DNA of 64,000 nucleotides from assembly GCA_958415625.1 (NCBI GenBank), contig CATYZI010000012.1, positions 1,095-65,094 of the forward strand, in the 5' to 3' direction. This DNA is from an uncultured Collinsella sp. (GTDB lineage Bacteria; Actinomycetota; Coriobacteriia; Coriobacteriales; Coriobacteriaceae). Positions 4,686 to 33,554 of this stretch are shown here, one piece after another (the stretch's first letter is position 1; each line of letters begins with the position of its first letter). Position numbers and translations under genes: made by a program. The notes under the pieces are model-generated. The model was not told the DNA's origin, ran no database searches, and was given only the letters and a program-made list of their open reading frames with translations.

Positions 4686-5965
4686 ATGGTCTTAAGAATG
4701 CTTTCCGCATCAAAGAATTGCGCGAAAAGATTCTTTTTACCATAGCTATGCTCGTCGTGTACCGCATTGGTGCGCACGTTCCTGTGCCCGGCATTCCCTT
4801 CCAGGGGATGCTGGGCCTTTTCTCGACCGATAACAATTCGGTCGCCGCAGGTGCTATGGCCCTCCTGAATCTTTTCTCTGGCGGCGCGTTGAGCTATGTG
4901 TCGGTGTTTTCGCTGGGCATCATGCCTTACATCACCAGCTCGATCATCCTCCAGATGCTCCAGGCCGTTGTGCCTTCCCTGCATGAGCTTGCCCGCGAGG
5001 GCGAGGTCGGTCAGACCAAGATTACGCAGTATTCGCGTTATCTCACCCTGGCTCTGGCAATCCTCAACTCCGTGGGTTACCTCTTCCTCTTTAAGAGCTT
5101 CGGCATCAGCTTCAATGGCGCCGGCGCTCCCGAGATCATCTTCGACCTCATGATCGTCGGCACGCTCACCGCGGGCGCCATGCTGATCATGTGGATTGGT
5201 GAGCTCATCACCCAGCGCGGTATCGGCAATGGCATGTCGCTGATCATCTTTGCGAACATCATGGCCGGTCTGCCGCAGGCGATCTTCTCCAGCACCGAGG
5301 GCAATGCCGGTGGCATCATCACCATGGTGATCATCTGCGCCATCATCTTGCTGGTTATCCCGCTGATTGTTTTCCTTGAGCGCGGCCAGCGCCGCATCCC
5401 GGTCTCCTACGCTAAGCGCGTCGTGGGCCGTCGCATGATGGGTGGCCAGACCACCTACCTGCCCATCAAGGTCAACACCGCGGGTGTCGTGCCGATCATC
5501 TTCGCTTCGGCGCTGCTGTACTTCCCGGCTCAGATTGCCGTGTTCTTCCCCGGCATCGGCTGGATTCAGGCAGTTGCCTCCGCGCTTTCGACCGGTTGGC
5601 TCAACTGGGTGCTTAACGTTGTCCTCATCGTGTTCTTCGCGTACTTCTACACCTCCATGGTGTTCAACCCCGATGACACGGCCGATAACCTTAAGAAGCA
5701 GGGCGGCTTTATTCCGGGCGTCCGTCCGGGTAGGGCTACCGCGGCCTACATCAAGAACGCGCTCAACAAGATCACGCTTCCCAGCGCTGTCTTTTTGGCG
5801 CTCATCGCCATCGTGCCTTCGATCATCTTCTCCTTCACGGGTAACCATCTGATCCAGGCATTTGGCGGCACGTCCATCCTCATCATGGTCGGCGTCGTGC
5901 TCGACACGGTCGATAAGCTCGAAGGCCAGATCAAGATGTATGATTACGATGGATTCTTTAAATAG
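4679..5965 (+). CDS. secY: Preprotein translocase subunit SecY
   Basis: 428-aa polytopic protein in the canonical spc position, with [13 protein letters not shown] and [15 protein letters not shown]. Confidence 0.97.
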
Positions 5966-23472: not shown

Positions 23473-24891
23473 CTAGCGGTCGGCGAGCGGCTTGTACTCC
23501 AGCGGTTCGATCACCGGGCGGTAGGCGGGTCGGATGATGCGGTGCGCGCAGAAGAGCTCTTCCATGCGGTGCGCCGACCAGCCTGCCATGCGGGCGACGG
23601 CGAACAGCGGCGTAAAGAGCGTCTCGGGCACACCGAGCATCTTGTAGATAAAGCCCGTGTACAGGTCGATGTTGGCGCAGATGGGCTTGGTCATGCCGTG
23701 GTCGCGCATGACCTGGGGTGCCAGGCGCTCAATGCGCTCGATGAGTGCGAACTCTTCGCCCAAGTCCTTCTTGGCTGCCAGCGAGCGCGCGTAACGGCGG
23801 CATACCTCGGCGCGTGGGTCGCTCAGCGTGTAGACGGCGTGGCCCATACCGTAGATGAGGCCCGTGCCGTCGAAGGCCTGCTTGTCGAGGATCTTGCCCA
23901 GGTAGGCCGCGACCTCGTCCTCGTCCTCCCAGTTGGAAACATGCGCGCGGATGTCCTCGTGCATAGACACGACCTTGGCATTGGCACCGCCGTGGCGCGG
24001 GCCCTTGAGCGAGCCGATAGCCGCGGCGTAGGCGGAATACGGGTCGGTGGCCGAAGACGACAGCACGCGGCAAGCGAAGGTGGAGTTGTTGCCGCCGCCG
24101 TGCTCGGCATGCAGCATGAGCATCACGTCGAGCAGCATCGCCTCATCGCGGGTGAACGCCATGCCGCCGCGCAGGACCTGTAGGATGGTCTCGGCGGTGG
24201 AGAGACCGGGCGTGGGGTGCGGCACGTGAACCTCGGAGCCGCGAAGCTTGGCGATCGAGGCCATGTGTGCGAAGGCGGCGATGCGCGGGAGACGTGCGAG
24301 CATGGAAATGGCGACGTCGATTTCGTGCTCGGGCGTGATCACGTCTGGTTCGGCATCGAAGGCGTAGAGCAGCAGCACAGCGCGCTGGAGCACGTTCATG
24401 ATGCTCGACGACACCGTGGTCATGGGGAACTCTTTGACGTACTCGTCGCTCAGATGTCTAAAGGCACCTAGGCGCTCGCAGAAGCCGTCGAGCTCTTCTT
24501 TGTTGGGTAGCGAACCCGTGATAAGCAGATAGGCGACTTCTTCGTAGCCGTAGCGATTCTCGGCCTGGGCATTGTTGACCAGATCCTCGATGCTGTAGCC
24601 GCGAAGCGTGAGCTTGCCCTGATCGGGCACGACCTTTCCGTCGACCTTGTTGTAGCCGTGCACATCCGAGATACGAGTGAGGCCCGCGACCACGCCCGAG
24701 CCGTCGGCATTGCGCAGGCCGCGCTTGACATTGTGCTCGACAAACAGGCCCTCGTCATAAGGGTCGGTCGGAAGGCCGTGGTAGAGGTTTTCGCTCTCAG
24801 GCGAAATCTGGCGGCTTGCTTCGTAATCCAGAACCAGGCGGCTCAAGTGGTCATCGAAGCGGTAATAGATTTTCTTGGCGTCGTAGGCCAT
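23473..24891 (-). CDS. Citrate (or 2-methylcitrate) synthase
   Basis: Motifs HAEHGGGNNSTF, GPRHGGAN and GHAVY. Confidence 0.9.
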   Translation of the reverse strand: MAYDAKKIYYRFDDHLSRLVLDYEASRQISPESENLYHGLPTDPYDEGLFVEHNVKRGLRNADGSGVVAGLTRISDVHGYNKVDGKVVPDQGKLTLRGYSIEDLVNNAQAENRYGYEEVAYLLITGSLPNKEELDGFCERLGAFRHLSDEYVKEFPMTTVSSSIMNVLQRAVLLLYAFDAEPDVITPEHEIDVAISMLARLPRIAAFAHMASIAKLRGSEVHVPHPTPGLSTAETILQVLRGGMAFTRDEAMLLDVMLMLHAEHGGGNNSTFACRVLSSSATDPYSAYAAAIGSLKGPRHGGANAKVVSMHEDIRAHVSNWEDEDEVAAYLGKILDKQAFDGTGLIYGMGHAVYTLSDPRAEVCRRYARSLAAKKDLGEEFALIERIERLAPQVMRDHGMTKPICANIDLYTGFIYKMLGVPETLFTPLFAVARMAGWSAHRMEELFCAHRIIRPAYRPVIEPLEYKPLADR

Positions 24892-24968
24892 GCGCGCTCC
24901 TCTCCGGGCCGCATCGGGGTGACTTGCATGGGCATGCGCGCGTCAGGCTATCCCCAGCGGCCTGTTCG

Positions 24969-25256
24969 CTACAGGCGGTACATAAAGTTAAAGACGTCCT
25001 CGCGCTGAATGGACACGTTGACGCCCGAAAGCTCGCCGGCCTCGGCCAGGGCCTTCTGCAGCTCGGCGAAGTCGAGCTTGGACTCGGCGGTGTCGGCCAG
25101 CATGGTCATGGTGAAGATGTCCTCGATAATGGACTGCGTAATGTCGCGGATGTCGACATTGGCTTCGCCCAGGACACGGGTGACGCCGGCGACGATGCCG
25201 GGGCGGTTCTTGCCAAGGACGGTGATGACGATACGGGAGGACGAGATCTCGGCCAT
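24969..25256 (-). CDS. ACT domain-containing protein (UPF0237-like)
   Basis: 95 aa, VITVLGKNRPGIVAGVTRVLGEANVDIRDITQ. Confidence 0.8.
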   Translation of the reverse strand: MAEISSSRIVITVLGKNRPGIVAGVTRVLGEANVDIRDITQSIIEDIFTMTMLADTAESKLDFAELQKALAEAGELSGVNVSIQREDVFNFMYRL

Positions 25257-25651
25257 GGGAAACCCTTTCGCGTGTTGGCGGCGCGCGACGGCGCTCCGCT
25301 ACGGTACAGTGTTCATCATTGTACCTGTCTGGCGCAAAAAAGGCGCGCTCGCTGCGGCGTTACATGCCTGCAACATGAGCGTAAGGGGGAAGGCCGCACG
25401 GGGAAGAGCCGTCTGGCGCGTGTCCGGCTCGTGTTGGGTTGATTTCCGATCTCAGCCGAACACATTGAGCGGACAGGCCGTTCCCGCAGTCAGTCGAACG
25501 CCTCCGACGGCTGATTCCGAACTGGAAGCGGAGGGCATCCCCGCCCTTCGGTAGGGGATACCGCTCCGCGGCGCATGCCGCGGGCGGCGCCCCTATCGGA
25601 CCACCGTGACCTCAGTTGGGATGGGCCCAGCACTGCCGCGTACTCGGTGAG

Positions 25652-26368
25652 CTAGAGCCAACTGTTCGTCTTCACGTCGCGTATGGCGATATTTCGGTCG
25701 TCCGGCTCGGTGATGCCGTAGCCGAACGCCTGGAGCGTCTCGATGGACTCCTGGATCCTCTGTTGGAACATGGGACCCGGATCGACCCTCGGCCCGAGGT
25801 GCCCGCGCCAAAGGCACGGCGTGGCGCGCAGCATGTTATGGATTTTGGAGATGGGCTCGATGTCGGCGTAGACGTTGAGCGTCGCCATGGCGTCCTTGTG
25901 GCCGAGGATCGATTGGAGCGCCTTGATATCGCCGCCTTGGCGGATCCACTGCGTTGCGAACGTGTGGCGAAGGCCGTGGAACGTGATCAGCTCGTCGTTG
26001 GTGCCCATGAGGCCGTTGGTCTCCGAGAACGTCTTGAACGCCCTGCGGATATAGCTTGTCGTCGCGAAGGTCGCGCCCGGCTCCGACAGGATGTAGCAGT
26101 CCCCGATCTCGACCGCCCCGGTAAGGCCGCGCAAGCGCAGCTTTCCGCAGTCGATCTCGTGGGTCTCCTTCAGGAAGGGGAGTAGGCCGACCGGGTCGAT
26201 GGGAATGGCCCTGGAATCATGGGTCTTGGTGTCCTTGATGAAGGAACCCATCCCCTTCGTGTGCGCCACCGAGTGCCTGACCGAGATCAGGCCCGTCTCG
26301 AAATCCACGCCGCACCACCTAAGGCCGAAGACCTCGCCGATTCGCATCCCCGTGTTCAGGGCGAGCAA
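25652..26368 (-). pseudogene. Tyrosine recombinase/phage integrase, catalytic domain only (N-terminally truncated)
   Basis: It has the R (LNTGMRIGE), HxxR (HGLRHTF) and H...Y (LGHKDAMATLNVYAD) motifs but lacks about 100-150 N-terminal residues. The upstream space is occupied by the HTH gene. Confidence 0.75.
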
Positions 26369-26377
26369 GACCGCCCT

Positions 26378-26629
26378 CTAATCCTCGGCGGACCAATCGA
26401 GTCCGAACTCTTTTCTGGCATCCTCTTCGCTCATGACTTCGAGAAGGTCTCCAGGTTGGCAACGAAGGGCGAGGCATAGCTGCTCGAGTGTGTTGAAGCG
26501 AATGCCGCGAATATGCCCTTTTTTAATACGGGACAGGTTCACGGGCGTGGTTCCAATCCTTTCGGCAAGTTCGTTCGAGGAAATCTTTCGCTCGGCCATG
26601 ATCTTGTCGAGGCGAACAATTACGGGCAT
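26378..26629 (-). CDS. YozG-like XRE-family HTH transcriptional regulator
   Basis: 83 aa, IVRLDKIMAERKISSNELAERIGTTPVNLSRIKKG..IRFNTLEQLCLALRCQPGDLLE. Paired with a DUF2975 gene. Confidence 0.85.
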   Translation of the reverse strand: MPVIVRLDKIMAERKISSNELAERIGTTPVNLSRIKKGHIRGIRFNTLEQLCLALRCQPGDLLEVMSEEDARKEFGLDWSAED

Positions 26630-26638
26630 GGCGTTTCC

Positions 26639-27151
26639 TTACGCAATCTCGTCGGAGTCGAGGTACAGCTCTCGGGCGTACAAGAAGAGCTGGGAAAGCA
26701 TGAACAGGACGATGCCGAGAACCAGAGAGGTCCAATCGAATGATGAAGCGATCTCTTGGGCGCCGACGGCCCCCTCGCCGCCAAACATCGAAACGGAGGT
26801 TTTGAGTGAGCCGGCGTAGAGGCTGGTGGCAGCTTGAACAACGAAGAGAATGCCGAGCACCTTCAAGCATGTCGCAGACCCTTTCTTGAAGGGGTCTCCG
26901 CTCTTGATCGTCCACACGAGAACGGCGCTGAGGATGGTCGTAGCGATACCGATGACGGCAGGGACCAATGTCGAGATCGCAAGGGCTGGATACGCGGGGG
27001 AGTCTACAATCACAGGGTTGTCGAGCACTTCGATTGCTGGCTTTAAGGAGAACGCCACTTGTGCGATGGCGGTGACGCAAAGGGCCGCAGAGGCTATCGC
27101 ACATGCGATGCGGAAGGAATGAAGCCGGGGAGTGCGATTGTCGGAACTCAT
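26639..27151 (-). CDS. DUF2975-like membrane protein
   Basis: 170 aa with 4 TM segments. It shows the usual partnership with a YozG-like HTH located 10 nt downstream. Confidence 0.7.
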   Translation of the reverse strand: MSSDNRTPRLHSFRIACAIASAALCVTAIAQVAFSLKPAIEVLDNPVIVDSPAYPALAISTLVPAVIGIATTILSAVLVWTIKSGDPFKKGSATCLKVLGILFVVQAATSLYAGSLKTSVSMFGGEGAVGAQEIASSFDWTSLVLGIVLFMLSQLFLYARELYLDSDEIA

Positions 27152-27207
27152 AATAACCTCCGAAGAATTTAAAAAACTCAGGTTACTTTTTAACAGTTTA
27201 TGTTAAA

Positions 27208-27236
27208 TTGACTTTGCCGGCAAGTAATCACAGTAT
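27208..27236 (+). promoter_or_regulatory. Possible promoter of the secreted-protein gene (TTGACT-17 nt-cagtat)
   Basis: Good -35 and weak -10, in an AT-rich divergent spacer. Confidence 0.3.
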
Positions 27237-27271
27237 GCTGCAACCGAAACCCCTCTAGATTGGAGAGGATT

Positions 27272-27637
27272 ATGTTCAGTACTGTTAAGTCGTGTAAGCT
27301 CTTGGTTTTCCTCGGCCTCGCTCTTTGTCTGTTGCTGCCGGGAGCCCCCGCTTTTGCGGATACCCCGATGCCTCCTTCCCAGGAGAGCAGCCAGTGTGCC
27401 CTCGTTGAGCCCCTCGGGTATACGGACGACGTCGTCGATACCTACTGGAGCTACAGCTGTCCTCGCGGCGTAAGCGGGCACAGCATCTCGATGTTCAACA
27501 TCTCTTACAAGACGATCTCCTACCGAAATGGCTATCGCCGATCCGCGCATCATAGGGAATCCCGCCTCGCTGCAATGTGTTCCTGTGGTGTTCTTGGCAC
27601 AACTGATAAATGGCAATTTGTCTATAGCACCTACTAG
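27272..27637 (+). CDS. Small secreted Cys-containing protein, unknown family (candidate bacteriocin-like product)
   Basis: Sec signal MFSTVKSCKLLVFLGLALCLLLPGAPAFA|DT. The mature protein is 92 aa with 4 Cys and is Ser/Tyr-rich. SD ggagagg precedes ATG 27272. Confidence 0.65.
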   Translation: MFSTVKSCKLLVFLGLALCLLLPGAPAFADTPMPPSQESSQCALVEPLGYTDDVVDTYWSYSCPRGVSGHSISMFNISYKTISYRNGYRRSAHHRESRLAAMCSCGVLGTTDKWQFVYSTY

Positions 27638-27644
27638 ATGCGAG

Positions 27645-27673
27645 GAGGGGCCGAGCATTTTGTTCGGCCCCTC
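27645..27673 (+). promoter_or_regulatory. Intercistronic GC hairpin directly after the small gene
   Basis: Perfect 10-bp stem gaggggccga/tcggcccctc with a 9-nt loop, starting 8 nt after the stop. There is no U-run. Confidence 0.6.
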
Positions 27674-27703
27674 TGTTCCGACTGGATGAGGTTAAGGTTG
27701 GCG

Positions 27704-29926
27704 ATGAATATGCTCAAAATCTCGAAGGCAATCTTTAGGTCGCTCCTCTCCTCCAGGTCACTCTGTGTTGCCGTTGTTGCGTTGATGGTTCTTTGTGCTT
27801 TGCCCGTCTTCAGGAGCGCGGCTGGCATCGACGGACGGGTTGAATACCTCGAGTCGGGAATAACCCGTGTTGAGCAGGAATTGTCAGCATCCTATGCGGA
27901 TGCGCTTGTGAATGCGGGGGAGGAGGGCGTCTATACCTCTTCATCAAGCATGCCCGCGCTTCTGTACCCTCTTGCCGCGGGGCGTCTTGTCTTGGCGCCG
28001 CTCTCTCCTCTGCTTCCGTTTCTGCAGGTATCGGATGGAGCGTACTCCTTTTATGACGGATCGAAGGAGTACTTGCTATGGGCCGCAACGGCCGTTGCCG
28101 TCTCGTTCCTTGCCGCGCGTCTTAACAAACGTGAAAAACTCATCATCCAGGCACCGATGGGTGAGCTGGGCAGGCTTGTTGCATCGAGCGTATGGGCGAG
28201 TGTTTTTGCGATGCTTGCCGTCTTCGCCGTCAATCTTCCAGGGATAATCGCCGCACTTGTGAAGAATGGCCCGGGCTCGCTGTTTTATCCGATAGGCTAC
28301 GTTCAATATGCGACTCCGGTTATCAAACCGGCTTGGCTGGTGTTCGCACAGACGGCCATCTTGCAATTCTTGGTGGCGGCGTTCATCTCGCTCGTCGTTC
28401 ACCTTGCCGTGAAGATTGCCAATAACCCTACGCTTGGAATCGTGTTCGTATGTGCCCTGATGGGGGCGACGATGGTTCCCGGGTATTACGGAAGATCCAT
28501 CGCTTTACGTGAGTTCGCCCTGTTGAATCCCCTTACGTATGCGAACACTGAGTTGACCGTCGGCGCCTATAGCCCGTACCCGACAACGCAGATAGTGAAT
28601 CTGCCTGGACTTTGCTTCGAGCGTGGCGCGATTACCCTCGTATGCGCAATCGGGATCGAGGTGCTGGCAATTAGCCTGCTTTGCGTTGCTGGAAAGAGCG
28701 GCTGCGCGCCCCCGATGTCCCCGATTTGTCTTGAGAGAGGTTCCTTCACCGCATCGAGAACGACAGCCCGTTCGAGCGCTTGTGCCTCCGCCGTTGCATA
28801 CGTAAGAACGATGGGGAAGCTGCTCCTGCATTCTCCTGCCCTCGCCGTATGCGCGATTGCAATGTCGACGGCGATGCTGGCCCCGGCTCTGGTCGAGGTG
28901 TTTCCTGACGCTGGTGACGTTTCCGCTGTTCGGTATAGGGATGGGGAGCTCCGTTCAATAGATCGGTATCTAGAGCAGGACGCTGCGAATATAGACGTCG
29001 AGGGCAAAGCGGCCCTGGAAGGCATGCGAGATGCTCTTTCGGGTTTCGTATACGCGCCCACGCCTGCGGAGGGGTTTCGAAGCCTTGCGACGTACGAGCG
29101 CGCTCGAGGCGAGCTGGGCGCGGCAGATGCGACCCTCCTGCAATCGATCGGAATCGAGCCGGAGACTCCTTCTCGTGCGGAGGCGCGCGCCCTTCTGCTC
29201 GAGTCGATCGCGAGCTTGCCGGACCCCAAGGTTTACGAGTTAAGTGCGAAGATGCCCCCATTAATCCTCCTTTCCTATCTCCAGGCAGCGCTTCCTTCCT
29301 TGTTTTGGCTGTTGCCCGTGGTTGTCACATCGCTTGCGTGCACCTACCTGCGGTGCCGTTCCCTTCTGGTTTTCCAAGTCCCCGCAACAGCGCATGTGCG
29401 TTTTCTGACGGCTGTTGCGCTGGCTCTCCTGCTTGGCTTGGTGCTGCTTTTGGTGTCGATGGTTCCCGCTGCGGTTGTGTCCTTGATTAAGAACGGTGCG
29501 GGTGGATCGGAGTATCCCGTCGCTCTCATTCGGGCGGGAGCTTCGACAACGTCCATGGTGGGGGAGGCGGTGTTGTGCAGTATTCCGTTGCTGGTCATGG
29601 CATACGGCGTGATTTCCGTCGTCGCTGCGTTGACAGCAGCGATTAGCCGCAACCCCGTTGTCACCGGAGTGGTTTGCGCGGTTCTCCTGGTGTTGGGTTC
29701 GTTGAGCGCTCATGTTGAAAGCGCGGGCATGGGCGTCGCGCTGCTGGCTCCATTCGCCTCGTTTGATCCCGCTTCCCAGGTGGGGACGATTGGGTTCCTT
29801 GGGCGAGGGACGAACGCGATGCCTTTTGGAGAGGTCGTCGGCGCATCGGGCGCTCTGCTGGTGGTCTTGGGCGCCGTATCTCCGTTGATGGTGCGCCTGA
29901 GTGTTCCAAAGATCGAAAGGGGATGA
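27704..29926 (+). CDS. Large polytopic membrane protein, internal tandem duplication of an ABC-2-like permease module
   Basis: About 740 aa. It has two blocks of TM1, a soluble roughly 150-190 aa domain, then a TM bundle. Each block carries an NGxGxxxYP motif. The start is chosen at ATG 27704; the ORF track gives 27638. Confidence 0.75.
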   Translation: MNMLKISKAIFRSLLSSRSLCVAVVALMVLCALPVFRSAAGIDGRVEYLESGITRVEQELSASYADALVNAGEEGVYTSSSSMPALLYPLAAGRLVLAPLSPLLPFLQVSDGAYSFYDGSKEYLLWAATAVAVSFLAARLNKREKLIIQAPMGELGRLVASSVWASVFAMLAVFAVNLPGIIAALVKNGPGSLFYPIGYVQYATPVIKPAWLVFAQTAILQFLVAAFISLVVHLAVKIANNPTLGIVFVCALMGATMVPGYYGRSIALREFALLNPLTYANTELTVGAYSPYPTTQIVNLPGLCFERGAITLVCAIGIEVLAISLLCVAGKSGCAPPMSPICLERGSFTASRTTARSSACASAVAYVRTMGKLLLHSPALAVCAIAMSTAMLAPALVEVFPDAGDVSAVRYRDGELRSIDRYLEQDAANIDVEGKAALEGMRDALSGFVYAPTPAEGFRSLATYERARGELGAADATLLQSIGIEPETPSRAEARALLLESIASLPDPKVYELSAKMPPLILLSYLQAALPSLFWLLPVVVTSLACTYLRCRSLLVFQVPATAHVRFLTAVALALLLGLVLLLVSMVPAAVVSLIKNGAGGSEYPVALIRAGASTTSMVGEAVLCSIPLLVMAYGVISVVAALTAAISRNPVVTGVVCAVLLVLGSLSAHVESAGMGVALLAPFASFDPASQVGTIGFLGRGTNAMPFGEVVGASGALLVVLGAVSPLMVRLSVPKIERG

Positions 29927-30672
29927 TCTCGATGATTGACCTTCAAACGCTGACGATCTCTTATGGAAAGAAGGTGCTCGTAGATTCGGTGAACGCTGAG
30001 TTTGCCCCGGGTACGGTCTACGGTCTCGTCGCTCCGAACGGGCATGGAAAGACGACGTTGCTGCGTGCGATGGCAGGTTTGCCGGGTCCTCGCGTGGACG
30101 GGAGCATCGTTCTGGATGAGGTGCAGGGTACGGGTGCGAGAGAGGTCCGTTCTATGATCTTCTATGCACCTGGTGAGGGGACGCTGCTGTATCCCGGATT
30201 GCGTGCGGAAGATCACCTCAAGATGGTTTGCGATATGTGGCCGCACGCTCGCGATATCGAAGAGATAGTGGAACAAACGCAGATAGGCGAGTTCGCGAAG
30301 ATGAGGATCCGCACTCTGAGCCAGGGCATGAAGCAGCAGCTTACCCTGGCGATTGCGTATGCGACGGGCGCGCGGTACCTTCTATTAGATGAGCCCATGA
30401 ACGCGCTCGACCCCAGCAGGGTGGACTTGCATTCCGAGATTCTCAGGAAGCTGGCCGATTCTGGTACGTGCATCATCATGTCATCCCACATCTTGGATTC
30501 GGTCGATAGGCTGTGCGATGAGATTCTGTTTTTGAAGGATGGGAGGCTCATTAGAAGCATTCCGCAAGATGATGCTGCGCCGAAGTCTCCTGGATCCCAT
30601 TTCGCAAAGCCTGCCGGACGCGCCGAGGGTGCGCTAAGCACGTATCGGCGACTCTACGAAAAGGGCGGGTAG
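29923..30672 (+). CDS. ABC transporter ATP-binding protein (BcrA/LanF-like signature)
   Basis: Walker A APNGHGKTT, signature LSQGMKQQ, Walker B LLLDEP, H-loop SSH. ATGA overlap with the upstream stop. An alternative start is ATG 29932. Confidence 0.9.
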   Translation: MISMIDLQTLTISYGKKVLVDSVNAEFAPGTVYGLVAPNGHGKTTLLRAMAGLPGPRVDGSIVLDEVQGTGAREVRSMIFYAPGEGTLLYPGLRAEDHLKMVCDMWPHARDIEEIVEQTQIGEFAKMRIRTLSQGMKQQLTLAIAYATGARYLLLDEPMNALDPSRVDLHSEILRKLADSGTCIIMSSHILDSVDRLCDEILFLKDGRLIRSIPQDDAAPKSPGSHFAKPAGRAEGALSTYRRLYEKGG

Positions 30673-30825
30673 AAATGCAAGTTAAAAATCTATGTGGTCA
30701 ATATGATGCCGTTGAACCCGCGTATCGATACCGCTCAGCCATTCGCCTCGCCCCCATCGCACGCATCTTCATTCGGTCTGTTACTTTTAATCTAACGATT
30801 CTTTGAGGAATGCAGGTGCTTCTGA

Positions 30826-32634
30826 ATGTACTGTCGACTTCTTCTCAAACTAATCCTAAGAGACAAGGCCGTATGGATTTCCACGCTCGTTCTTGCTGCA
30901 GCCTTTTCCGTCCCCATTGCGTTCAATTCACCCATCTACGGCCCCTTCTTTATGAAGCAGGGCATGCAGGGCTTTGTCGACGCATTCAATACGCGCGCGC
31001 CCCAGGCCAGCGGCACAGACCTATCGCCAGAGCAGCAAGATGACGCTGAGCTTGCAAGATACGCGAACGCCGCCCTCGCCGCTCAAACCGACGCCGCCTT
31101 TCTCGACTCTGCCGAGAGCTACTACGCGCTCATGGACGAGGGCTTCCAATCCGGGTCCATCGTGGGGGACCAGGAGACCAATGACGCAGAGCTCGCATAT
31201 TGCCGCGCTCTGAGCAGCTCCGGCATCGCGGATATCCCGGCCTCCGCAAACGACCTGCCGTTCCTCTCCTTCCTGCCCTACGCCATTGCCCAGGCGCCGT
31301 CCTTCCTTCCCTTCATCCCCTTCCTTCTCTCGTCGATACTCGTGCTCGGCGCCACAAGGCCCGGGACCCTGGCGGCAAAGGCGCCCGTGCCCAAATTCCG
31401 GCGCCTTATCCAAACCGTGTTTTCGATAATTGGCGCGGGGACCGCGATGCTCCTCGCCGGCCTTGCGCCCGGGAGTATTTACGCCTTGGCCCTAAACGGC
31501 TTCGGGCAGATCGGGTACCCGATCGCCTTCTTCCATAACGGCGCGCTCACTACCACGACCGCGGGAGACGTCTTCACGACCATACTTCTCGCGCTGCTCG
31601 CGGGTGGAACCTTGATATCCGTTTGTTCCGTCGTCCTATCGACCGCAACGAGGCGCGTCTTCGCGGGCCCCCTTACCTCCGCGTTGCTTGTCGCGGCCCC
31701 GGCATTCCCGTTATTGTCCGATTCGGCACTGGGGCATAATGCCGCGCTCGAGCTCCTGCCGCTGGCCGTGTTCTCGCCTATCGAGGCAACGGGTTACGTA
31801 GGATGCTTCCCAACAGAATTCATTGACTCCGGTTCAAGCGGTGCATCGATGCTTGCCGTGGCCCTGATATACGTCGCGGTCTTTTTTGCGGTCGGCGCCG
31901 TTGCGACACGTTCGCCCAAACAGTCTGAACCCGCGAAAAAGCGCCATGGGCTCGAGCTTCTGGACGTGAGCGTGGGATACGGAAGCACGACGATACTTTC
32001 AATCGGATCGCTTTTCTTGAGCCCGGGAACGGCGGCGGGCCTCATTGCTCCCAACGGCTCGGGGAAAACCACCTTTCTTGAAGCGCTGTCGGGCCAATTT
32101 CCCACCCGTATCCACTCGGGAAGCCTGGTGGCAGACGGAATCAGCCAACGTCAATCAGCCGAATTTGCAGAACTCGTCTACCTGAGCTCTTCAGGCGGCA
32201 CGGATCTTTACCCCACGCTATCAGCCCTCGAGCACCTTGCTTTCGTTAGGGATGCGTGGAAATCGGCCGCCGACATCGACTCGCTCTGCAGCTCCCTCGG
32301 AATCTCCCCATATCTCGACAAGCCGGCCCGTAAACTCTCGACGGGAATGAAGCAGCAGGTAAAGCTTGCCATGGCGATAGCGACCGATTGCCCGTACCTC
32401 ATCCTCGATGAACCGCTGAACGGCCTCGATCCGGGAAAGCGGAAAACCTCCTGCGACGCGATGCGCAGCGAGGTGGCGCGGGGACGCAGCGTGCTCATTT
32501 CAAGCCATCTGCTCGACGACCTGGCAGACCTCACCGACTCGTTCTACTTCATCGAGGCCGGCACGCTCGTGGAAAAGATCAAGTCGTCCTCGCAGACGCT
32601 CAAGCAGGAATACCTCGATACATACGAAGGATGA
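30826..32634 (+). CDS. Fused permease-ATPase ABC protein (N-terminal membrane module, C-terminal NBD)
   Basis: Residues 1 to about 375 form a TM module with NGFGQIGYP. The C-terminal part has APNGSGKTT, LSTGMKQQ and LILDEP. Confidence 0.85.
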   Translation: MYCRLLLKLILRDKAVWISTLVLAAAFSVPIAFNSPIYGPFFMKQGMQGFVDAFNTRAPQASGTDLSPEQQDDAELARYANAALAAQTDAAFLDSAESYYALMDEGFQSGSIVGDQETNDAELAYCRALSSSGIADIPASANDLPFLSFLPYAIAQAPSFLPFIPFLLSSILVLGATRPGTLAAKAPVPKFRRLIQTVFSIIGAGTAMLLAGLAPGSIYALALNGFGQIGYPIAFFHNGALTTTTAGDVFTTILLALLAGGTLISVCSVVLSTATRRVFAGPLTSALLVAAPAFPLLSDSALGHNAALELLPLAVFSPIEATGYVGCFPTEFIDSGSSGASMLAVALIYVAVFFAVGAVATRSPKQSEPAKKRHGLELLDVSVGYGSTTILSIGSLFLSPGTAAGLIAPNGSGKTTFLEALSGQFPTRIHSGSLVADGISQRQSAEFAELVYLSSSGGTDLYPTLSALEHLAFVRDAWKSAADIDSLCSSLGISPYLDKPARKLSTGMKQQVKLAMAIATDCPYLILDEPLNGLDPGKRKTSCDAMRSEVARGRSVLISSHLLDDLADLTDSFYFIEAGTLVEKIKSSSQTLKQEYLDTYEG

Positions 32635-32821
32635 ATGTGGGGGAGTGTTCGGATGATAGTTGATATTCAAGGGCCAGCTCGTGTCGTGCCGAAAAGACCG
32701 TGAACCTTTTGTGGGACATGCGGCGCCGTGGTACCATAGCCGAGTTTGTTGTCTTGGTCGGAAACCAAGACGCCTTATGCGCTGATCGGTAACCAGCGCC
32801 TGACCAATAAGGAGTCCTACC

Positions 32822-33247
32822 ATGAAGCAGGGTATCCATCCCCAGTATGTCGAGTGCACGGTGACGTGCTCCTGCGGCAACACCTTCAAGACGCACGCTA
32901 CCGTGTCCGAGATGAAGGTCGAGCTTTGCAACGAGTGCCACCCGTTCTACACCGGCCAGCAGAAGTTCGTCGACACCGGTGGACGCGTCCAGCGCTTCGC
33001 CGACAAGTTCGGTGGCGCCGCTGCCGCCCAGCTCAAGAAGGCTGAGGAGGCCAAGGCTGCCAAGGCCGCCAAGGCTGCTGAGGCCGAGGCCGCTCGCAAG
33101 GCCGCCGCTGAGGCTAAGGCTGCCGAGAAGGCCAAGCGTGCTGCTAAGTTTGCCGAGGAGGCTGCCAAGCAGGCCGCCGAGGCTCCCGCAGAGGCTCCCG
33201 TCGAGGAGGCCGCTGCCGAGGCCGAGACCACCGAGGCTGCTGAGTAA
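32822..33247 (+). CDS. rpmE: 50S ribosomal protein L31 (zinc type A) with a 75-aa Ala/Lys/Glu-rich tail
   Basis: [20 protein letters not shown]...[12 protein letters not shown], followed by [34 protein letters not shown]... Confidence 0.93.
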
Positions 33248-33284
33248 ATAGCTCGCCGCGGAATCACTCGCATTCATGGCATGA

Positions 33285-33325
33285 GGGCCGTGCATCCATT
33301 TGGGTGCGCGGCCCTTTTCTTTTTA
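33285..33325 (+). terminator. Rho-independent terminator after rpmE
   Basis: Stem gggccgtgcatcc/gggtgcgcggccc (2 G.U), followed by ttttcttttt. Confidence 0.8.
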
Positions 33326-33554
33326 TTGGTGCAAGCTAACCTGTCCCCGTGGCACCAAATGGCAGAGAGACGGCGTTTGCTCAGATAAAACCTGCCAAAA
33401 TAAACCCGTTCCATTGCGGCAGGTTGGTCATAGTTATTACGTGGCGGTCGAGCTCGACCGTATAGGCCGCGCCTTGTTTGGCTAAAGTACAATCATCTGT
33501 GTTTAACTCGCCCGCAGCTGCACGGCGTGGGCGATGGCCAAAAAGGAAAACCAC

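Follow-up and report, generated by a model that had tools for sequence, protein, structure and literature searches.

A 64,000-nucleotide (nt) stretch of DNA from an uncultured Collinsella sp. (assembly GCA_958415625.1, contig CATYZI010000012.1, positions 1,095–65,094, forward strand; here called the window) contains an operon of ATP-binding cassette (ABC) genes preceded by an open reading frame (ORF) of 121 amino acids (aa) at 27272–27637 (+). We found this small ORF to be a genuine, strain-variable accessory gene for what its sequence predicts to be a Sec-type exported protein, and the product to be a member of a protein family that is previously unannotated and unnamed. Judging from the gene neighborhoods, a functional link between the family and the ABC exporter is likely. 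The association is recurrent yet optional in both directions, as family loci lacking ABC genes and ABC loci lacking the family both exist, and what accompanies the family most constantly is instead a gene pair for a YoaS-like membrane protein and a YozG-like helix-turn-helix (HTH) regulator. Our preferred reading, held tentatively, is that the product may be a strain-variable secreted antagonist or signal, against which the ABC exporter and/or the YoaS-like protein would give protection.

The locus has the following parts in the window (coordinates, strand, feature).

25652–26368, minus: remnant of a tyrosine recombinase, 238 aa, comprising just the catalytic domain, at the left edge of the island
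26378–26629, minus: YozG-like Cro/C1 HTH regulator, 83 aa, PF13443 (HTH_26)
26639–27151, minus: YoaS/DUF2975-like membrane protein, 170 aa, about four transmembrane segments, divergent from the small ORF
27152–27271, no strand: AT-rich divergent control region with an inverted repeat, TTGACT, and a small hairpin
27229–27645 (end approximate), plus: presence/absence segment with the small ORF, from alignment and the allele catalogue
27272–27637, plus: gene for the small, predicted secreted protein, 121 aa; signal peptide 27272–27358, mature protein 27359–27634
27645–27673, plus: GC-rich hairpin, leader of the ABC operon, from folding and allele comparison
27704–29926, plus: tandem-duplicated ABC permease, 740 aa, from hydropathy and internal similarity
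29923–30672, plus: ABC ATPase, 249 aa, PF00005; ATGA overlap with the permease stop
30826–32634, plus: permease-ATPase fusion, 602 aa, ABC_tran at residues 395–532
32635–32821, no strand: empty 3′ cargo slot, from gap sizes across strains
32822–33247: L31 gene, 3′ of the cargo slot

Evidence for a Genuine Gene

An initial annotation, made from the letters of the DNA, had described the small ORF as a precursor with a textbook signal peptide and a mature part rich in Ser and Tyr, and this description was borne out. The protein starts with the signal peptide MFSTVKSCKLLVFLGLALCLLLPGAPAFA, cleaved before DT at an AFA-DT site, and the mature part of 92 aa contains 14 Ser, 8 Tyr, and 4 Cys, with a net charge of –5 in the N-terminal and +5 in the C-terminal half. 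A Shine-Dalgarno sequence, GGAG, is placed 6 nt 5′ of the ATG.

Among the 40 Collinsella genomes carrying the ORF, we counted 15 synonymous and 8 nonsynonymous variable sites, one of the latter being nonsense, and all variants found in more than two genomes were synonymous. Given 83 synonymous and 280 nonsynonymous sites, this corresponds to a pN/pS of 0.16 (binomial p = 1.8e-5). In isolate genomes and metagenome-assembled genomes (MAGs), the ORF was intact at 37 of 39 loci, and the resulting disruption rate (2/39) is not unusually high in comparison with the neighboring genes (1–2/82). A word-indexed search with the small ORF retrieved near-identical copies only, plus frameshifted versions from metagenome assemblies, while a HMMER search against 1.8 billion representatives recovered about 25 distant family clusters of 106–130 aa and 28–53% identity to the small protein. 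The conservation that the initial annotation had presupposed is thus found both within Collinsella, in the low pN/pS, and among these distant clusters.

The alternative that the small ORF is a nonfunctional chance ORF within a long leader is contradicted by this conservation pattern. The absence of the ORF from half of the loci and the many frameshifted versions in metagenome assemblies would both fit a chance ORF, but the pN/pS and its p value, the motifs and signal peptide kept in distant homologues, the confident core of the AlphaFold2 model (see below), and the Shine-Dalgarno sequence all speak for a translated and selected product, and we give the alternative next to no weight. We take the small ORF for a real gene because of the pN/pS and the distant homologues with conserved motifs and signal peptide. 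In the metagenome assemblies, the frameshifts are of at least a dozen different kinds (variants P0005–P0024), some of them recurring in clusters of 11–24 member sequences, and one variant from the National Center for Biotechnology Information (NCBI), P0013, has an in-frame deletion of 40 aa.

A Previously Unannotated Protein Family

The full-length family members carry signal peptides with AxA-type sites and, after a variable linker of some 20 residues, a Tyr/Trp-rich core of 67–73 aa with the pattern V-x-D-T-Y-x-x-Y-x-C-P ... H ... Y-K-x-I-x-F-x-N-G-Y ... C-x-C-x-x-G ... Y-x-Y-x-T-W. In the window protein, the core begins at approximately residue 52 (DDVVDTYW...). Cys63 is invariant in the family and Cys103 nearly so, mostly as CxC; conservation does not extend to Cys42, the fourth cysteine of the window protein.

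Predicted from the single sequence, the AlphaFold2 model of the small protein was too poor for use (predicted local distance difference test, pLDDT, 49.7). With an alignment of seven sequences, the pLDDT rose to 76.8, with 80–90 in the core, giving an all-beta model of moderate confidence in which the core is predicted to fold into four long beta strands (residues 21–33, 49–55, 59–71, and 80–91 of the mature protein). A Foldseek search with this model against the Protein Data Bank (PDB) and BFVD found nothing similar at E ≤ 0.001, and the TM-score reached approximately 0.3 at best. Sequence and profile searches of the PDB with the family were without a match as well, none of the 22 family members matched a Pfam model, PF09683 included, even at E ≤ 10, and the window protein matched no NCBIfam model at E ≤ 1. 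In the literature, we found nothing on the family or on Collinsella bacteriocins of such type. The view of the initial annotation that the protein belongs to no nameable family therefore holds for Pfam, NCBIfam, and the PDB. With PHROGs and PADLOC likewise giving no match, annotation tools that use these five resources would overlook the family.

The initial annotation had also raised a possible kinship with lactococcin 972 (Lcn972; PDB 2LGN), and we considered whether the locus is an operon of that type (structural gene, large immunity membrane protein, and ABC ATPase) related to it by descent. The likeness is real at the level of layout: the order of small gene, large polytopic membrane protein, and ABC ATPase is identical, and the Collinsella small protein is, by prediction, like Lcn972 Sec-exported and unmodified, with a beta-rich core of about 66–70 aa and an aromatic C-terminal residue. 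Human gut commensals do carry Lcn972-family bacteriocins (PMC12345188). The Sec signal peptide and the core length (67–73 aa vs. about 66 aa) are resemblances, however, and not specific, and homology was rejected by every test run, whether by hidden Markov model (HMM), hhalign, PDB profile search, or Foldseek. PF09683 and TIGR01653 were not matched by the window protein (E ≤ 1), nor PF09683 by any of the 22 family members (E ≤ 10). Hhalign paired the family profile with the Lcn972 precursor, whose sequence was checked as identical to 2LGN_A, with a probability of 0.9% over 6 columns. The PDB profile search did not recover 2LGN or 9HKJ, and 2LGN was outside the Foldseek top 50, a result that is not absolute given the moderate confidence of the model.

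The rest of the operon is equally dissimilar. The 740-aa membrane protein has no match to TIGR01654 and is instead a tandem ABC-type permease, TIGR03608 is not among the best 25 NCBIfam matches of the 249-aa ATPase, and the Collinsella locus adds a permease-ATPase fusion and a divergent regulator pair; the conserved Cys...CxC pattern further sets the core apart from Lcn972. A true relative can be recognized at low similarity: mediterrocin from Mediterraneibacter gnavus, although only 18% identical to Lcn972, carries the family annotation and is predicted to adopt a matching fold (PMC12345188). With sequence, profile, and predicted fold all lacking similarity, we regard descent from an Lcn972-type operon as extremely improbable. 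The last 66 residues, which the initial annotation had set beside mature Lcn972, start exactly where the family core starts; that boundary stands, and the homology does not.

Presence and Absence of the Gene in Collinsella

We searched a genome collection containing one genome per species with the 740-aa permease and kept the best 80 of 558 matching stretches. Near-identical loci were found in Collinsella, in the aerofaciens group, and we compared 83 loci from the promoter region (..GCAAGTAAT, 27228) to the permease ATG (27704). They fall into four alleles.

Allele A, 475 bp, 40 of 83 loci including the window: carries the small ORF
Allele B, 88 bp, 10 loci: without 27247–27632; the initial 18 nt, the final 5 nt of the ORF including its stop codon, and the hairpin remain
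Allele C, 58 bp, 20 loci: without 27228 to about 27645; begins at the hairpin
Allele D, 60–61 bp, 13 loci: about 24 nt in common with A, then 36 unrelated nt; no hairpin

The ABC operon is thus kept without the small ORF at 43 of the 83 loci, and all four alleles come with the regulators and the ABC genes, which are almost always intact. Since alleles B and C both keep the hairpin and leader of A, which D does not have, the simplest explanation for them is that an A-like ancestor lost the ORF twice, by independent deletions. Presence in 40 of 83 loci, clean deletions, and retained partners together make a polymorphism typical of toxin/immunity loci. Putative protection genes that outlast the secreted protein, together with the loci of several paralogs and the variable cargo slots described below, are typical of the appearance of bacteriocin and immunity islands. 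Collinsella is a prevalent genus of the human gut, with about half of the lineages carrying the small gene and the rest having it deleted, and a factor of competition that influences strain coexistence would be expected to show just this pattern, a secreted protein lost with its putative protection genes kept throughout.

The leader of the ABC operon contains a GC-rich hairpin that the initial annotation had attached to the small gene. Its geometry was correctly read: the arms at 27645–27654 and 27664–27673 form a perfect stem of 10 bp, extendable to 14 bp with further pairs, that begins at the 8th nt after the stop codon. An 81-nt region around it folds at –33.6 kcal/mol (z = –3.5). Of the four alleles, only D lacks the hairpin, and in allele B the stem shows one compensatory change from A–T to C–G and one mismatch. 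Because it is kept in alleles without the small ORF, the hairpin belongs, on comparative grounds, to the ABC leader rather than to the small gene. No Rfam family covers it, the sole Rfam match being the L31 leader described below. As the hairpin is not followed by a T run, it was not called as an intrinsic terminator.

For the region of the window from 23473 to 33247, we compared the loci L007–L086 gene by gene. The nucleotide identity to the window was 94% for citrate synthase in the flank, 97% for the integrase remnant, 98–99% for the HTH, YoaS-like, permease, and ATPase genes, 99.6% for the small ORF, and 95% for the fused permease-ATPase. The island from the remnant to the ATPase (97–99.6%) is more uniform than the chromosomal flank, which suggests that it has recently spread by recombination among Collinsella lineages. 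A comparison of leader alleles with flank variation was uninformative, identities within types being about as high as between types, and the values for the left flank are distorted by the ungapped comparison. Three loci labeled Acutalibacteraceae, Treponemataceae, and Ruminococcus (L040, L042, and L045) have the locus at 97% protein identity with Collinsella-like synteny, and their labels likely reflect contamination of bins or mislabeling. The MAG contigs among L007–L086 often break in or just after the fusion gene, 27 of 58 matches to that gene being partial, which fits strain heterogeneity or variable cargo there.

Recurrent and Optional Partners of the Family

A wide scan of metagenomes for further family loci returned two short contigs. 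Six distinct locus types were readable in the survey of gene contexts, given here with identities to the proteins of the window.

(i) Window: HTH and YoaS-like genes leftward; small gene, tandem permease, ATPase, and permease-ATPase rightward; ABC genes present
(ii) L090–L093: HTH (58% identity), YoaS-like, and radical S-adenosylmethionine (SAM)/SPASM genes leftward; small gene (34% identity), 394-aa permease, and ATPase (44% identity) rightward; ABC genes present
(iii) L100–L103: HTH (71% identity), two paralogs flanking a 174-aa YoaS-like gene, and a fragment weakly similar to the permease N terminus; ABC genes probably present
(iv) L087–L089 and L094: HTH (called in L094 only) and 162-aa membrane protein leftward; small gene and rapZ rightward; no ABC genes
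(v) L098: 154-aa membrane protein leftward; small gene rightward up to the contig end; ABC genes not readable
(vi) L095–L097: small gene, extracytoplasmic function (ECF) sigma factor, and 413-aa protein; no ABC genes

Family members are found upstream of homologous permease and ATPase genes in L090–L093 and probably in L100–L102. The 394-aa permease of L090 matches both halves of the 740-aa permease (E 1e-9). This supporting synteny, together with a paralog at the other end of the operon in many strains, upholds the earlier claim that the small ORF is linked to the ABC system. The stronger claim, that the ABC apparatus is dedicated to the small ORF, did not survive: 43 of the 83 Collinsella loci have the ABC genes without the ORF, and the loci beside rapZ or the ECF sigma factor have the family without ABC genes. 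The initial annotation had itself named the occurrence of the small ORF without ABC genes in relatives as a finding that would speak against it, and such loci do occur. The pair of YoaS-like and HTH genes, which the initial annotation had passed over, is the most constant neighbor of the family, being found in five of the six locus types and even in the absence of ABC genes (L087 and L094).

The 3′ end of the ABC operon provides a second position for the family. In approximately half of the Collinsella loci readable there, a Cys-poor family paralog of 114 aa starts 1 nt after the stop codon of the fusion gene, translationally coupled to it, and is followed by a canonical terminator. An HMM of the family built without this paralog found it at E ~1e-8. 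The gap sizes of the slot range from 186 to 2066 bp, with 186–191 bp corresponding to an empty slot, the state of the window. Among the alternatives to the paralog is a 141-aa protein with an N-terminal transmembrane segment (L029, L071, L072, L077, and L082 examined); in inserts of about 2.06 kb (L029, L072, and L082), its gene is followed by one for a polytopic membrane protein of 207–209 aa. Neither end holds a family member at 11 of the 30 Collinsella loci readable at both ends, and the ABC system has therefore a role that is independent of the small protein.

These observations raise the alternative that the small protein is an unrelated passenger, a nonantagonistic secreted or envelope protein placed in the variable cargo slots of an ABC operon that has some other job, such as resistance to drugs or host peptides. 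The retention of the ABC operon without a family member, the unrelated cargo accepted by the 3′ slot (the 141-aa protein and the 207-aa membrane protein), the family members beside rapZ or the ECF sigma factor, and a sequence without toxin-diagnostic features would all be expected of a passenger. What would not be expected is that, in separate lineages and at 26–34% protein identity, family members again adjoin homologous permease and ATPase genes, that the Collinsella ABC operon has them at either end, and that translation of the 3′ paralog is coupled to that of the last ABC gene. On balance, we consider a passenger unlikely and keep to a secreted antagonist or signal linked to its neighbors.

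The radical SAM/SPASM gene in locus type (ii), at 5236–6414 of L090 and also in L091–L093, lies between the YoaS-like gene and the divergent family member (Radical_SAM 70 bits, SPASM 35 bits). This placement would suit an enzyme that cross-links the Cys...CxC core before export, in the manner of ribosomally synthesized and posttranslationally modified peptides. The gene was seen, however, in one of the six locus types only, the island has no such gene between the integrase remnant and the L31 gene, and the small protein is long and predicted to fold unaided, which together make such a modification very unlikely.

In locus type (iii), the two paralogs stand on either side of the YoaS-like gene (647–1000 and 1721–2098 in L100; 639–983 and 1723–2100 in L102). 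Between the HTH and YoaS-like genes lies a copy whose core is acidic (pI 4.4 in L100 and 6.0 in L102), and the copy of L100 that adjoins the permease is near neutral (pI 6.0). The two could form a two-component pair.

The Regulator Pair and the Divergent Spacer

The HTH protein of the pair is clearly assigned, matching PF13443 with 75.2 bits against a cut-off of 22, and is 56–71% identical to the HTH proteins encoded beside distant family members (L090, L094, and L100). Its partner has about four transmembrane segments in a hydropathy scan and is 30% identical (E 1e-13) to the 174-aa protein of L100, and the YoaS-like proteins share an acidic C-terminal tail ending in DSDEIA, DSEEIA, or DSDSFI. 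Operons of YoaS and YozG are widespread and their function is unknown; they have an AT-rich upstream region with inverted repeats that have been read as operators of the HTH repressor (bioRxiv 10.64898/2026.09.15.751765). The pair in the window resembles them in the order of the two genes, in an HTH_26 match above the cut-off, and in the AT-rich upstream region with an inverted repeat. It differs in that the membrane partner matches DUF2975 under the threshold only, and in being linked to a secreted small-protein family and ABC exporters, a link not previously described.

The spacer between the divergent genes (27152–27271) has 36.7% GC, and an inverted repeat, TTTAAC-N7-GTTAAA (27189–27207), directly abuts the TTGACT at 27208–27213. 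A small hairpin at 27252–27268 includes the Shine-Dalgarno sequence of the small ORF (GGAGAGG). The divergent spacers of all related loci are AT-rich and contain inverted repeats of diverse sequence. The AT-rich spacer and the TTGACT were thus as the initial annotation had them, but its reading of the latter as a –35 box was not backed by a promoter call: since no acceptable –10 element follows, a consensus scan called no sigma-70-like promoter on the plus strand there.

The layout brings to mind the Sdp system of Bacillus subtilis, in which a membrane immunity protein, SdpI, senses the secreted toxin SdpC and sequesters the autorepressor SdpR (PMC2910880). By analogy, the secreted ligand would be sensed by the YoaS-like protein, which would sequester or release the YozG-like repressor and so switch on the ABC operon. 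As in Sdp, the gene for a secreted Cys-containing protein adjoins an operon that pairs a polytopic membrane protein with a small HTH autorepressor (PMC2910880), and immunity genes may exist without the toxin gene; the YoaS-like and HTH pair is the most constant neighbor also where ABC genes are lacking, and the putative rightward –35 box directly follows an operator-like inverted repeat. The likeness is one of layout, however, and the mechanism is drawn by analogy: homology was not detected, the regulator is of the Cro/C1 HTH_26 type, the membrane partner is YoaS/DUF2975-like and had no SdpI-family match (Pfam, E ≤ 1) beside its subthreshold DUF2975 match, and an ABC exporter is added. YoaS–YozG operons are also widespread without the small-protein family, so the pair does not need a small-protein ligand. 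For these reasons, we see the Sdp-like circuit as rather improbable.

The same doubt applies to the wider proposal of a toxin or signal circuit of three proteins, with the YoaS-like protein as receptor or immunity protein of the small protein, the YozG-like protein as repressor, and the ABC exporter as add-on protection. If it were true, the family would be a new Sec-dependent antagonistic protein family in Coriobacteriia and the circuit would give the first functional handle on the uncharacterized YoaS–YozG (DUF2975) operons. The constant pairing with the small-protein family is in any case a testable lead on the function of this widespread module.

The ABC Genes

The initial annotation had placed a polytopic protein of about 740 aa, an ATPase overlapping it by ATGA, and a permease-ATPase fusion downstream of the small ORF, and we found all three where it had put them. 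The 740-aa permease is a tandem duplication in which each unit consists of one transmembrane segment, a loop of 110–120 aa, about five further transmembrane segments, and an NGxGxxxYP motif. This unit recurs in the fusion protein as its N-terminal half, which shares 26% identity with the second half of the 740-aa permease, and it also makes up the 394-aa permease of L090. The permease matches no Pfam or NCBIfam model (NCBIfam at E ≤ 1), TIGR01654 included. We set its start at 27704, where gene-calling programs put it on related contigs and where the aligned homologues place it. The ATG of the mechanical ORF, at 27638, immediately follows the stop codon of the small ORF, and translation from there would run through the hairpin. 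The ATGA overlap couples translation of the 249-aa ATPase to that of the permease. With a tandem permease and a separate ATPase in addition to the permease-ATPase fusion, the locus could build two exporters.

Both ATPases match ABC_tran (PF00005) with 77.7 bits for the 249-aa protein and 70 bits for the other, and contain the signature motifs LSQGMKQQ and LSTGMKQQ, which the initial annotation had associated with BcrA/LanF-type immunity exporters. The motifs and the placement in a group of LanF-, DrrA-, and NodI-like proteins hold, but the best NCBIfam match, TIGR03740 (lantibiotic protection), reaches 124 and 83 bits against a cut-off of 309.75, and the next models, NodI and DrrA, are likewise far under their cut-offs. 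These nearest models point to a putative ABC-2-type exporter for peptide or drug resistance. In comparison with the LanFEG, BcrAB, and DrrAB exporters, the likeness is confined to the best-matching ATPase models and the LSxGMKQQ signature, as the permeases match no family and the architecture of tandem permease, separate ATPase, and permease-ATPase fusion is unusual.

The 249-aa ATPase is 44–58% identical to the ATPases of L090 and L003, and the 740-aa permease 35% identical to an 868-aa homologue, P0054. No distant homologue of the tandem permease was found other than that of L003 (2650–7126; 868 aa, 35% identity), which stands beside the ATPase with 58% identity. This locus, situated between glycyl-radical enzyme genes and molybdenum cofactor genes, also encodes a putative secreted or lipoprotein-like protein of 300 aa and has neither a member of the small-protein family nor a YoaS/YozG pair.

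Proposed Function

In the mechanism that we propose, the small protein would be secreted via Sec, its conserved cysteines probably pairing in a disulfide, and would act outside the cell on neighboring bacteria as a bacteriocin-like antagonist or as a signal. Protection of producers, and of the many strains that have lost the gene, would come from the ABC exporter, the YoaS-like membrane protein, or both. The YozG-like repressor would bind the inverted repeat abutting TTGACT and control its own operon as well as the rightward operon of the small gene and the ABC genes. The hairpin, ancestral to the ABC leader, may in ORF-bearing strains also set the ratio of small-gene to ABC transcripts.

Several results weigh against this proposal. 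The searches run revealed no homology to a known bacteriocin, immunity protein, or toxin, and the family cores are mildly cationic at most, some being acidic (pI 4.4–6.3). The membrane partner reaches PF11188 (DUF2975) only under the threshold, with 22.6 bits against a cut-off of 27, though over nearly the whole profile (positions 18–127 of 130), and the partners at other loci score 10–15 bits or nothing. The lack of a called promoter at TTGACT, the two distant family contexts without ABC genes, and the 11 ABC operons without any family member, all described above, count on the same side. Should the protein not be antagonistic, it would still represent a new small secreted protein family in a variable slot of an ABC operon, a finding of modest interest.

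Further Features of the Island

The initial annotation had placed the locus on a lower-GC island beside an integrase remnant. The remnant was confirmed by the Pfam scan (PF00589, 75 bits, profile positions 29–168 of 172), and the GC dip turned out to be modest, with 57.8% in the island against 60.5% for the whole window. No tRNA attachment site was found in 24500–33500. Searches of PHROGs and PADLOC gave generic P-loop and HTH matches only, without phage or defense specifics, and a phage or defense-system origin was rejected, PHROGs, PADLOC, and BFVD having yielded nothing specific. Just 5′ of the L31 gene, at 32779–32814 (+), lies an L31-Coriobacteria leader (Rfam RF03128; 35.1 bits, gathering score 33), and a second, weaker and partial match is found at 32751–32771.

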